Part shown: piece by piece, positions 58,872 through 60,944 of the stretch
How positions within the stretch are numbered: position 1 is the first letter of the stretch
Layout of the letters: each line of letters begins with the position of its first letter
Virus record (IMG/VR): IMGVR_UViG_2660238657_000001
Span: 32,001-96,000 of that record
Strand: one strand, 5' to 3'
DNA length: 64,000 nucleotides
Origin: a virus
Lineage: Duplodnaviria > Caudoviricetes
The notes under the pieces: model-generated
Database searches by the model: none
Seen by the model: the letters and a program-made list of their open reading frames with translations, nothing else
What the model was told of the DNA's origin: nothing
Made by a program: the position numbers and the translations under genes

Positions 58872-59201
58872 TTAATCAATAAAAATATTTATATTAAGAT
58901 TGATTTTCCAAAGTGTGCTCCTGAAGTCTTCATGAATTAATAGATTTGCGTCCTCTAACTGTTTAAGATATCGAGATAAAGATGGTCTTGGAATATTTAA
59001 TTTTTCTGCTGTTCGCTCTAATTTTAATATGACCCATTCGTCTATACCTTTTTGAAGTTGAATAGGTATAAAGAATTCTAAAAAATCAATTAAATTTGGT
59101 TTTAGTTTATACCGTTTAATAAAATTTGAACTAAAAAATACTCTATATTCATTATCAAAATTTTTAATATAAATATTTGGTATACATACCACCTTAATCA
59201 C
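58872..59201 (-). CDS. Winged-helix paralog 6 of the tandem array
   Basis: EW.ILK...AE.L.IPRPSLSRYLK.L...NLLIHEDFRSTLWK. Confidence 0.85.
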   Translation of the reverse strand: MIKVVCIPNIYIKNFDNEYRVFFSSNFIKRYKLKPNLIDFLEFFIPIQLQKGIDEWVILKLERTAEKLNIPRPSLSRYLKQLEDANLLIHEDFRSTLWKINLNINIFID

Positions 59202-59215
59202 ATTCTCCCTAATTT

Positions 59216-59548
59216 TTATTTTATCGTTACTTCGATAATATTAGAATTTATCTTCCAAAGATTACTTCTGAACCTTTCTTGAATTAAAATATTTGTATCC
59301 TTTAACTTTTTAAACCAATTATTGACCGTTATTCTTGGAATGTTCAGCTGTTTAGATACATCATCAAGCCGTAATATCATCCATTCGTTTAGCCCTTTTT
59401 GAAGTTGTAAAGGTATTAAATATTGTATAAAGTTCATTTCAGATGTATTCAAACTGAATTTTTTAGTATAATCTGTGTTTACACATATTGCCCTCTTTCC
59501 ATTAAACTCTATCACATAAATAGCCTTCATTTCTTCCATATGTAACAA
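59216..59548 (-). CDS. Winged-helix paralog 5
   Basis: IPRITVNNWFKKL..NILIQERFRSNLWK. Confidence 0.85.
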   Translation of the reverse strand: MLHMEEMKAIYVIEFNGKRAICVNTDYTKKFSLNTSEMNFIQYLIPLQLQKGLNEWMILRLDDVSKQLNIPRITVNNWFKKLKDTNILIQERFRSNLWKINSNIIEVTIK

Positions 59549-59580
59549 CTCCTTACCTATAATTAAATAATATATCAGTC

Positions 59581-59910
59581 CTATCTCGAGGAAATCTCGT
59601 ATATTTCAATATTATTATTAAATTTCCAAAGCGTACTTCTAAAATCTTCATGGATAAGTATGTTCTTTTGCTCCAACTTCTTCAACCACTTTGATATAGT
59701 TCCCTTTGTTACTCCCAAGTCTTCTGACACTTCATCAAATTTAATTATGATCCAATCATTTAAATTGCTTGTATAATATTTAAAAACAATATAATAAATA
59801 AATCCTACTTCGCTACTATTCAATTTATAGCTTAATATAAATTTTGCATCAATTAATATTGATTTTTTTACATTATTCAACTCCACAATATATATACCCT
59901 TAGTATTCAT
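59581..59910 (-). CDS. Winged-helix paralog 4
   Basis: VTKGTISKWLKKL..NILIHEDFRSTLWK. Confidence 0.85.
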   Translation of the reverse strand: MNTKGIYIVELNNVKKSILIDAKFILSYKLNSSEVGFIYYIVFKYYTSNLNDWIIIKFDEVSEDLGVTKGTISKWLKKLEQKNILIHEDFRSTLWKFNNNIEIYEISSR

Positions 59911-59922
59911 AATAAAACCCTC

Positions 59923-60261
59923 TTATTCTAAAGCTAGTTTGTTGTTACAACAAATCATAGTCGAATCCAATTTCCATAATGGACTTCTAAAGTCTTCATG
60001 TATTAATAGATTTGTTTTTTCTAATTTCTTTAGCCACTTACACACTGTTGCTTTACTTGCTTGCAAATCTTCACAAATATCATCTAATTTGAATATCATC
60101 CAACCACCTAAAATAGAATTAGGATATTGTTTGGGTATAATGTAATTTAAAAATCCTGCTTCACTTCTATTAATATTGTTTTTGGCTAACCATTTTGCAT
60201 TTAAAAATACTGATTTTTTAACTTTACTAATTTCTAATACATATACTATTTTAGTATCCAT
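59923..60261 (-). CDS. Winged-helix paralog 3
   Basis: ASKATVCKWLKKL..NLLIHEDFRSPLWK. Confidence 0.85.
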   Translation of the reverse strand: MDTKIVYVLEISKVKKSVFLNAKWLAKNNINRSEAGFLNYIIPKQYPNSILGGWMIFKLDDICEDLQASKATVCKWLKKLEKTNLLIHEDFRSPLWKLDSTMICCNNKLALE

Positions 60262-60270
60262 AACAATCTC

Positions 60271-60615
60271 CTACTTATATTTCTCTTGATAACAAATCAT
60301 ATTTGGGTTAAGCTTAAAAAGTGGACTTCTAAAGTCTTCTTGAATAAGTATATTGCTTTGTTTTAGCTTTTGCATATATCTAGCTAATGTTGGTCTTGGA
60401 ATATCAAATTGTTCTGACATATCATCAACTTTCAAAATCATCCAATCATCGAATCCTTTTGCAATTTGCAGAGATATCAGCTTTTCAATAAATACTGTTT
60501 CAGGTGGTTTTAATTTAAAATCATTTATAAAACTTATATTTAAAAAACTTGTAATTCGCTTATTTGTTCTCAATATATAAATGGCTTTAATGTTCATAAC
60601 GGCGTCACCTATCAA
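60271..60615 (-). CDS. Winged-helix paralog 2
   Basis: IPRPTLARYMQKL..NILIQEDFRSPLFK. Confidence 0.85.
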   Translation of the reverse strand: MIGDAVMNIKAIYILRTNKRITSFLNISFINDFKLKPPETVFIEKLISLQIAKGFDDWMILKVDDMSEQFDIPRPTLARYMQKLKQSNILIQEDFRSPLFKLNPNMICYQEKYK

Positions 60616-60944
60616 ACCATCTTCTCGGAAAATATCATTTTAGCATTCATCTTCCATAATACACTTCTAAAATCTTCTTGAACTAAAACATTCTTATTTT
60701 TTAAGCTTTGTAACAATCTTGATACTGTAGTTTTAGGAATATCAAATTCTTCGGCAATGTTATCTAATTTGATAATTATCCATTCATCTAATCCTTTTAC
60801 CATTTGTAAAGGTATTATTTTTTTAATGAAGTTCATTTCACTGGGGTTTAATTGTAGTTTTTTAGCAAAATCTAAATTTAAAAAACCAATGAATCTATCT
60901 TGTATTTGTATTATATAAATACCTTTATCCATAATATTATTCAT
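60612..60944 (-). CDS. Winged-helix paralog 1
   Basis: IPKTTVSRLLQSL..NVLVQEDFRSVLWK. Confidence 0.85.
   Translation of the reverse strand: MNNIMDKGIYIIQIQDRFIGFLNLDFAKKLQLNPSEMNFIKKIIPLQMVKGLDEWIIIKLDNIAEEFDIPKTTVSRLLQSLKNKNVLVQEDFRSVLWKMNAKMIFSEKMV

Follow-up and report, generated by a model that had tools for sequence, protein, structure and literature searches.

Six Tandem Winged-Helix Paralogs in a Variable Slot of a Botulinum Neurotoxin Phage-Plasmid: A Possible Recombination-Diversified Panel of Putative DNA-Binding Proteins

Why would a phage-plasmid keep six small, diverged copies of one winged-helix protein side by side, and on what would these proteins act? The question is raised by a locus in the IMG/VR virus record IMGVR_UViG_2660238657_000001. 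The window analyzed here is the whole 64,000-nucleotide (nt) stretch from position 32,001 to 96,000 of that record, and the array occupies its positions 58872–60944 on the minus strand (coordinates are those of the window unless stated otherwise). The region around the array is 100% identical to plasmid p1 of Clostridium botulinum strain 3859/11 (NZ_CP063960.1; 208,224 bp, circular), a phage-plasmid carrying the genes of type C/D botulinum neurotoxin (BoNT). The reading favored here, and held tentatively, is that the array is a recombination-diversified panel of small phage winged-helix DNA binders, located in a conflict island and acting on other phages.

Organization of the Array

The array consists of six adjacent genes, g1 to g6, all on the minus strand, with near-equal lengths of 107–112 amino acids (aa) and with coordinates that agree exactly with those given in an earlier note made from the sequence alone. 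In the order of transcription these are g1 (60612–60944; 110 aa; helix 3 starting with PKTTVSRL); g2 (60271–60597; 108 aa; PRPTLARY), with ATG 60597 as the start codon as in RefSeq and an in-frame TTG at 60615 upstream of it; g3 (59923–60261; 112 aa; SKATVCKW); g4 (59581–59910; 109 aa; TKGTISKW), the paralog used for the structure model; g5 (59216–59539; 107 aa; PRITVNNW), starting at ATG 59539 as in RefSeq within a longer open reading frame (ORF) that extends to 59548; and g6 (58872–59201; 109 aa; PRPSLSRY), which has a GTG start and the RefSeq name “LysR family”. The intergenic gaps measure 9–41 nt, and a GGAG-type ribosome-binding site lies upstream of each of the six starts. Pairwise identity among the six proteins is 30–47% (37–47% to g1), and the shared motifs listed previously proved real, with 14 invariant columns in the six paralogs and 10 in twelve family members.

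A single promoter in front of the genes had also been proposed. A consensus-like sigma-70-type site, TTGACT-17-TATAGT (10 of 12 consensus matches), is predicted on the minus strand at 60983–61011, in the 153-nt gap between g1 and the gene of an MBL-fold hydrolase directly upstream. No other strong promoter-like site was found for the array. Since the region holds no more promoter-like sequences than its shuffled versions do (30 found, 36.4 expected), this promoter remains a prediction. The palindrome said to close the array at 58838 was not recovered: no exact inverted repeat of at least 6 nt (spacer up to 12) occurs in 58791–58880, where only a 5-nt ATACT...AGTAT can be made out by eye, and the array flanks hold no exact inverted repeat of at least 7 nt with two or more G/C. 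A repeat search of the array region likewise found no iteron-like repeat array beside the operon. The 9–10-mers ACCAATATG and ATACTTTTAA, considered as a shared operator, were set aside because they are within chance expectation for AT-rich DNA (partly by our own estimate).

Fold and Conservation of the Array Proteins

The AlphaFold2 model of g4, built from a 12-sequence alignment (pLDDT 86.9, pTM 0.78), begins with an N-terminal beta-hairpin (residues 4–20) and a short helix, continues with a canonical winged helix, namely H1 (32–45), a strand (54–55), H2 (58–65), H3 (69–81), and wing strands at 85–87 and 94–97, and ends with an extra C-terminal strand (102–107). The resulting topology, E-E-h-H1-s-H2-H3-wing-E, contains that of the winged-helix superfamily (H1-S1-H2-H3-S2-wing-S3), and winged helices make up all of the best structural matches. 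On this model, the array proteins can be assigned with confidence to a winged helix-turn-helix (wHTH) fold with an extra three-stranded beta extension, in agreement with the earlier assignment and with many sub-threshold wHTH matches.

In the g4 model, the block N-x-L-I-(H/Q)-E-D-F-R-S-x-L-W-K forms the beta-hairpin wing, and the strings that had been listed as recognition helices lie at the start of helix 3. The wing (residues 83–98) has a mean column entropy of 0.56 bits, with 8 of its 16 positions invariant, compared with 1.18–1.76 bits in the other segments, which bears out its description as almost invariant. The most variable segments are the C-terminal tail (1.76 bits), the short helix (1.61 bits), and the N-terminal hairpin (1.51 bits). 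The first half of helix 3, at 1.44 bits, equals the protein average; the recognition helices are thus correctly placed in the earlier description, but they are not hypervariable. The helix 3 pattern K/R-x-T-[VIL]-S-[KR]-[WY], of the classical DNA-reading type, is kept in all members. Identical residues are encoded by identical codons in 94 of 164 cases in the wing (0.57) and in 241 of 395 cases elsewhere (0.61); because codon identity is not raised in the wing, its constancy is due to selection at the protein level and not to gene conversion. The impression that the genes are selectively retained therefore holds at the protein level, as all six are intact, all have a ribosome-binding site, and the wing is under purifying selection. 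In addition, the E-D-F-R-S loop of the wing aligns with the E-x-Y-R-G wing of MntR-type repressors, and therefore Arg91 probably contacts the minor groove or the backbone.

Subfamilies and Recombination

In a maximum-likelihood tree, none of the array genes groups with its array neighbors; each joins a sequence that comes from a different genome. The pairs are g5 with P0007 (support 99/97; 74% identity), g6 with P0011 (100/99; 64%), and g4 with P0010 (99/98; 71%), these three relatives coming from other D/C or C/D strains. Singletons from prophages of group I C. botulinum, C. sporogenes, and C. novyi group with g3 (93/93; 63%; helix 3 identical at 12 of 14 positions), while g1 and g2 fall with the clade of a lone copy found on p1 plasmids (85/88), to which each is 58% identical and which is the nearest outside relative of g1. 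The relatives of g3, g1, and g2 were verified as lone genes. Judged from these sequences, the subfamilies are older than the array, and at least two of them have single-gene counterparts in other Clostridium phages.

The closest pairs differ from one part of the protein to the next. Compared with P0007, g5 is a mosaic, identical at 44 of 45 positions of the N-terminal module, 5 of 14 in helix 3, and 1 of 9 in the tail. Between g4 and P0010, helix 3 (14/14) and the wing (15/16) are kept, the N-terminal module is identical at 27 of 46 positions, and the C-terminal tail at 1 of 10. Tails differ even in the closest pairs (1–3 identical positions of 8–11), as would be expected from crossovers recurring at the wing-coding block.

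A joint of this kind was found in contigs aligned to the array locus from three coded sequencing runs of one study (X1, X2, and X3). One contig of 3,273 nt from X1, about 97% identical, carries both the MBL-fold gene and the array and skips 338 nt (60324 to 60663). The two sides of the joint are the ends of two conserved wing-coding blocks of one repeat family (D3), that of g2 at 60325–60345 (minus strand), which codes for QEDFRS, and that of g1 at 60663–60683 (minus strand). By codon arithmetic, codon 94 of g1 is joined to codon 92 of g2, and the resulting in-frame hybrid, g1(1–94)/g2(92–108), is intact, leaving an array of five genes. The same joint is present in X2 at a low depth of 3.6. 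Taken together, the sequence comparisons indicate that N-terminal module, helix-turn-helix (HTH), and C-terminal tail have been shuffled by recombination among relatives, with crossovers at the wing-coding block. Two further joints had support too weak to count, one in X3 that would remove the whole array (58854 to 61099; side of 26 letters) and one in X2 that goes back 337 nt (depth 3.5).

Copy Number and Distribution of the Family

Five related p1 plasmids were compared by a family profile search. Seven copies were found in p1 of 3859/11, one in that of BKT2873, and none in those of 1873, Stockholm, and BKT015925, which share the flanking region with 3859/11 p1. The seventh copy of 3859/11 (NZ_CP063960.1, 156903–157229) lies between tail-module genes on one side and a ToxN/AbiQ-type toxin gene and the C3 exoenzyme gene on the other, with intergenic regions of about 290 nt on either side, and is 99% identical to the syntenic singleton of BKT2873 p1. 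With a hairpin upstream, a promoter-like site of its own, and a hairpin downstream, each of these two p1 copies is a stand-alone unit; the inverted repeats upstream of singletons are terminator hairpins only. On BKT2873 p1, two unrelated ORFs of 142 and 67 aa, without family matches, replace the MBL-fold gene and the array between the gene of the KilAC antirepressor and a Cro/C1-type gene. From these comparisons, the MBL-fold gene and the array are gained and lost together, and the array is accessory and dispensable for the plasmid, with a gene number of six that is not fixed. Random copy number and pseudogenes in relatives had been named earlier as signs against a retained system; copy number does vary, but no pseudogenes of array genes were seen in the relatives compared.

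Outside these plasmids the family is small. A profile search of 5.8 billion clustered proteins returned 12 clusters, all source-named ones from C. botulinum or “Clostridium”, and an exhaustive HMMER pass over 1.84 billion representatives returned 40 proteins at E ≤ 0.001. Among those 40, the only full-length relatives of about 105 aa are P0004, P0012, P0013, and P0014; P0012 and its kin come from group I C. botulinum (strain Langeland), C. sporogenes, and C. novyi A, on contigs of up to 4.16 Mb. Three metagenomic proteins of about 210 aa (P0024, P0030, and P0041) join the family winged helix to a beta-rich C-terminal domain, whose best structural matches are Bacillus subtilis YojF (Z 7.7) and 2ph0 (Z 7.1), uninformative with a model of pLDDT 73.8. 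The remaining inspected matches are long proteins of repeated HTH units, aligned in the HTH only; three of 501–818 aa (P0015, P0016, and P0019) hold 7–11 tandem HTH units in one polypeptide, a fused counterpart of the tandem gene array.

Among viral and plasmid collections, IMG/VR holds four records with one copy each, namely three complete proviruses of 37–42 kb and one c-st-like fragment, and PLSDB has matches in 2 of 72,556 plasmid records. A phage collection gave no match to DNA or protein queries, c-st-type records being apparently absent from it. None of 66 pattern matches from a JGI metagenome scan was confirmed, and the one locus left from 68 pattern matches in 185,579 species-representative genomes, an HTH-only hit in a Phenylobacterium metagenome-assembled genome, was treated as spurious. 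In the complete 37.6-kb provirus G001, the lone family gene is situated downstream of a SEFIR/TIR gene and upstream of early or replication-type genes. The SEFIR/TIR protein has 487 aa (L022, 11363–12826) and a Schlafen AlbA_2 gene nearby, both likely prophage-borne defense morons.

As far as these searches reach, the wHTH family appears confined to Clostridium phages and prophages, without a Pfam family or a characterized member. No description of the family or of an analogous array was found in the titles, abstracts, and few passages of the literature that were covered, which accords with the earlier statement that no described system resembles it. The supplements of the group III genome papers and the p1 analysis announced in PMC8354527 may already tabulate the array locus.

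Possible Function of the Array

According to the favored reading, the array would be an accessory multigene family that occupies a variable slot within a conflict island of the BoNT phage-plasmid. Each protein would bind DNA through helix 3 and the invariant wing, and the paralogs would probably assemble into separate small oligomers that prefer different sites. Expressed together, the panel would let the prophage act on several DNA targets, most likely through repression of, or interference with, (super)infecting or co-resident Clostridium phages bearing lone family members. It would then serve as a multi-specificity immunity or interference cassette and not as the plasmid's own replication or partition machinery. 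The combinatorial regulator set or panel named as one option in the earlier note comes close to this. A more specific version, to which we give little credence, treats the array as a natural combinatorial library of DNA-binding specificities and as a cassette for immunity or interference that is aimed at several targets in rival Clostridium phages. In that library, the N-terminal hairpin with H1, the HTH, and the C-terminal strand would be three interchangeable modules, reshuffled by homologous crossovers at the invariant wing-coding hinge. We know of no description in phages of module reshuffling as a way to diversify repressor-like proteins.

Several observations weigh against the proposed panel of DNA binders. 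DNA binding by the array proteins is something we infer from modeled fold and motif only, and helix 3, which should carry distinct DNA specificities, does not exceed the remainder of the protein in variability. With two acidic residues (E88 and D89) and a Phe that is exposed, the wing would likewise fit a protein interface, and the same fold is used in DnaD-type domains for protein–protein scaffolding. The flanking sequences of array and singletons yielded no convincing shared operator, and no DNA target was identified. There is no copy in the other PLSDB plasmids, and therefore a target among co-resident plasmids is not evident. Finally, P0010, P0007, and P0011, the kin of g4, g5, and g6, may be no regulators of other phages but orthologs that belong to arrays of other strains.

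Other explanations have therefore to be considered beside the panel. The proteins could be ordinary transcription factors for the element's own genes, duplicated and partly redundant, with no role in inter-phage conflict. The p1 lone copy upstream of tail-module genes and the G001 copy upstream of early or replication-type genes are in line with this; in the early region of G001 there is no strong Cro/CI-type protein (11 of 15 extra ORFs lack a Pfam match, and there is a weak HTH_19 match at E 0.0057), and the wHTH may therefore be a main regulator there. Housekeeping regulation does not, however, readily account for six diverged and shuffled copies in a slot that is dispensable, three of the five related plasmids have the same core genes and no copy, and the array subfamilies match regulators of different phages, so that we consider such a purely internal role possible but rather doubtful. 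The proteins might also be origin-binding domains from phage initiators that block initiation, acting in replication interference, incompatibility, or copy control on rival or own origins. Initiator N-terminal winged helices are indeed their most consistent remote likeness (phrog_428, Phage_rep_O, DnaD_N, HTH_36, 4pta, and the DnaD N-terminal domain, or DnaD-NTD), joined by weak “replication initiator” matches in BFVD and by RepA_N and RepL clusters in the ESM-Atlas, and the absence of any C-terminal helicase-loader domain would fit a blocking function. Nevertheless, this is an unlikely account, given that these likenesses are below curated thresholds, that structure searches tie initiators with ordinary regulators (Crp, LexA, MarR, and ArsR), and that neither a likeness to the plasmid's annotated RepA nor origin-like repeats were identified.

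A protein could equally be the target. Anti-defense factors or decoys, with a wing that binds a conserved host or defense protein and with DNA binding secondary or lost, would have variable beta-sheet surfaces that evolve to engage or escape a fast-evolving partner. The gain and loss of the array together with an Apyc1-like MBL-fold hydrolase inside a defense/anti-defense island, a most conserved element in the form of a loop bearing E, D, and F, which would be unusual in a wing that contacts nothing but DNA, the position of the greatest variability in the surface strands of N-terminal hairpin and C-terminal tail, and a modular shuffling typical of conflict genes would all suit such factors. 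All members nonetheless keep the classical DNA-reading helix 3 pattern, PADLOC offers no model beyond generic wHTH tails, and no partner was identified, and we hold protein targeting to be improbable. The earlier note had put forward a hetero-oligomer of all six proteins reading one long composite site on the phage-plasmid, be it an origin, a centromere, or a cassette site. Co-transcription of the six genes from a single predicted promoter, an invariant wing that could be a common interface for mixed assemblies, and a fold resembling DnaD-NTD and RepA_N domains, which oligomerize, are compatible with it. It is disfavored by the copy numbers and by the presence of independent modules for replication and partition, and is very unlikely: three of the five p1 plasmids replicate and segregate without the family, all four IMG/VR virus records have lone copies, the relative of about 97% identity has five genes, a TubR-TubZ-TubY module and the annotated RepA lie elsewhere and are unrelated to the family, and no iteron-like array adjoins the operon.

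Should the panel prove to act on other phages, it would matter for the toxin as well. Lysogeny of BoNT C/D phages is said, in work attributed to Sakaguchi in 2005, to be unstable, and genes that govern coexistence or competition with other Clostridium phages bear on the spread and loss of toxigenicity. An unclassified wHTH family of diverged, shuffled variants around one fixed element also offers a compact system in which to follow how DNA- or partner-binding specificity evolves after duplication. It further represents a candidate gene class for phage conflict islands, where arrays of DNA-binding paralogs have had little attention.

The Phage-Plasmid and the Surroundings of the Array

The window has a G+C content of about 24–32%, with nearly all transcription on the minus strand, and encodes functions typical of a large phage-plasmid, such as PolIII-alpha with an intein, a DnaB-type helicase, RecD, ligase, and methylases, together with a reverse transcriptase, a MazF-like toxin, and many antirepressor-type genes. 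The PolIII-alpha gene with its intein-splicing domain (9270–13868, minus strand) is accompanied by a split NrdD (2–2578, minus strand); this anaerobic ribonucleotide reductase is encoded in two ORFs with a GIY-YIG endonuclease gene between them, which looks like an intron or homing-endonuclease insertion. The annotated RepA of the plasmid is at 49605–50792. At 53304–54809 (plus strand), a single open frame of 501 aa matches phrog_11092 from end to end, where RefSeq annotates two coding sequences. The announcement of the 3859/11 genome (PMC8354527) describes the p1 phages that carry BoNT as mosaics sharing a core of only 38 genes.

The array shares its co-oriented accessory region with TnpB, a MazF-like gene, two orphan N6-methylases, and no fewer than five genes of the antirepressor type. 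A DUF4041/T5orf172 protein encoded some 6 kb away (51604–52905, minus strand) matches the PD-Lambda-1 defense gene at E 4.6e-167, and given so strong a match, the phage-plasmid therefore carries an anti-phage defense gene. The MBL-fold hydrolase directly upstream of the array (61098–61811, minus strand) scores 45.7 bits with Apyc1 (anti-Pycsar), sub-threshold against a cut-off of 50, and has other weak matches to a cyclic-nucleotide phosphodiesterase model and to RNase Z.

At the other end, convergent to the array, the Cro/C1-type HTH gene (58499–58723, plus strand; HTH_26, E 1.4e-14) forms the fixed edge of the variable slot, its protein having the identical accession in BKT2873 p1. This gene is divergent, across the upstream region 58299–58498, from an operon of small ORFs, an N6-methylase, and Rha, and the divergent promoter region holds an AT-rich 31-nt palindrome (58398–58451), possibly an immunity-like switch. 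Between the array and the HTH_26 gene lies a hairpin with an 11-bp stem (58716–58742). On the plus strand it is a canonical terminator, serving mainly the convergent HTH_26 gene; on the minus strand the T-run falls inside the stem.

Comparison with Known Families

Searches of Pfam, NCBIfam, PHROG, and PADLOC returned no family at curated threshold except a marginal HTH_IclR, which exceeds its cut-off of 22 only in g1 (25 bits; one of the six paralogs) and in the p1 singleton (26.2 bits), and Foldseek found no match at E ≤ 0.001 in the PDB or BFVD, so that the array did not turn out to belong to a characterized family. In PADLOC, only generic wHTH-tail matches were seen (CARF3, SoFic, and CasR; E 2e-7 to 1e-3). 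When the g4 model was compared by VIA-align, all matches had Z < 8, and therefore no fold assignment beyond winged helix is made; the longest alignments include RepA_N 4pta (Z 7.4, 89 residues), DnaD-NTD 2vn2 (Z 7.2), 8ojj (Z 6.8), and ORC/Cdc6, those to RepA_N and DnaD-NTD spanning 84–89 residues.

The sub-threshold likenesses share one direction. The phrog_428 “replication initiation protein” matches nearly the whole protein (E 1.3e-5 for g4 and 8e-7 for the provirus homologue), Phage_rep_O scores 16.1–21.1 bits (cut-off 28.7) and DnaD_N 17–22.9 bits (cut-off 27), with HTH_36 also among the Pfam matches. The ESM-Atlas neighbors are HTH_36, IclR-HTH, RepA_N, or RepL proteins of about 100–120 aa, and the weak BFVD matches include several “replication initiator” proteins. 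The fold is best described as an initiator-type or HTH_36-like winged helix, which serves as a lead and not as a membership. Like the N-terminal domains of initiators (HTH_36, Phage_rep_O, DnaD_N, and RepA_N; 4pta, 2vn2, and 8ojj), the array proteins have a winged helix of about 100 residues with strands flanking the core. Unlike initiators and helicase-loader organizers, they end about 10 residues past the wing without a C-terminal initiator or loader domain, and they are encoded by six tandem stand-alone genes. The plasmid's own annotated RepA is unrelated to the family (hhalign probability 0.4%).

With the repressors of the ArsR/SmtB, MarR, MntR/DtxR (N-terminal domain), IclR (HTH), and Lrs14/Sta1 types, the array proteins share the HTH, the beta-hairpin wing, and the helix 3 pattern; in contrast to these dimeric repressors, they have beta-strand extensions in place of dimerization helices and metal- or ligand-binding domains. 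The MarR and RepL likeness suggested earlier did not hold. The best MarR score is 19.9 bits against a cut-off of 24.6, and the proteins are shorter (107–112 aa, compared with about 140–150 in MarR) and have beta strands where MarR has terminal helices. RepL (PF05732) has no match at E ≤ 1 in any of the six paralogs, and only one Atlas neighbor cluster carries it. The RefSeq name of g6 was likewise rejected, since HTH_1 scores 19.3 bits against a cut-off of 26.6 and 109 aa leave no room for the substrate-binding domain of about 200 aa found in LysR proteins.

TubR, the third likeness proposed, is the wHTH that binds the centromere in the TubZRY partition system, found on phage-plasmids of the c-st type (Oliva 2012, cited in PMC8354527; PMC6009700). 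On the plasmid the TubR-TubZ-TubY module is located at record positions 198335–200618, with TubZ at 199285–200355 and TubR (81 aa) at 200373–200618. TubR and the array proteins are alike in being small winged-helix proteins encoded by elements of one type, but TubR is a separate protein that adjoins TubZ and TubY, about 27 kb from the array round the circle. An hhalign probability of 5.6% over 46 columns, in the HTH only, and the lack of a tubulin-like gene near the array led to its rejection as the identity of the array proteins. Regulators of the Aca type, in which an HTH gene ends an operon of small non-HTH genes, were rejected because all six array genes encode a wHTH; the promoter-like gap that separates the MBL-fold gene from the array genes is a second mismatch with that layout.

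Antirepressor families (Bro-N, KilAC, Rha, and AntA/B) differ from the array in having other folds and scattered genes and in acting on repressor proteins, whereas the array proteins presumably act on DNA. Like the array, however, they comprise multiple diverged paralogs in the same co-oriented accessory region, and they provide an analogue for paralog expansion in phage–phage conflict.

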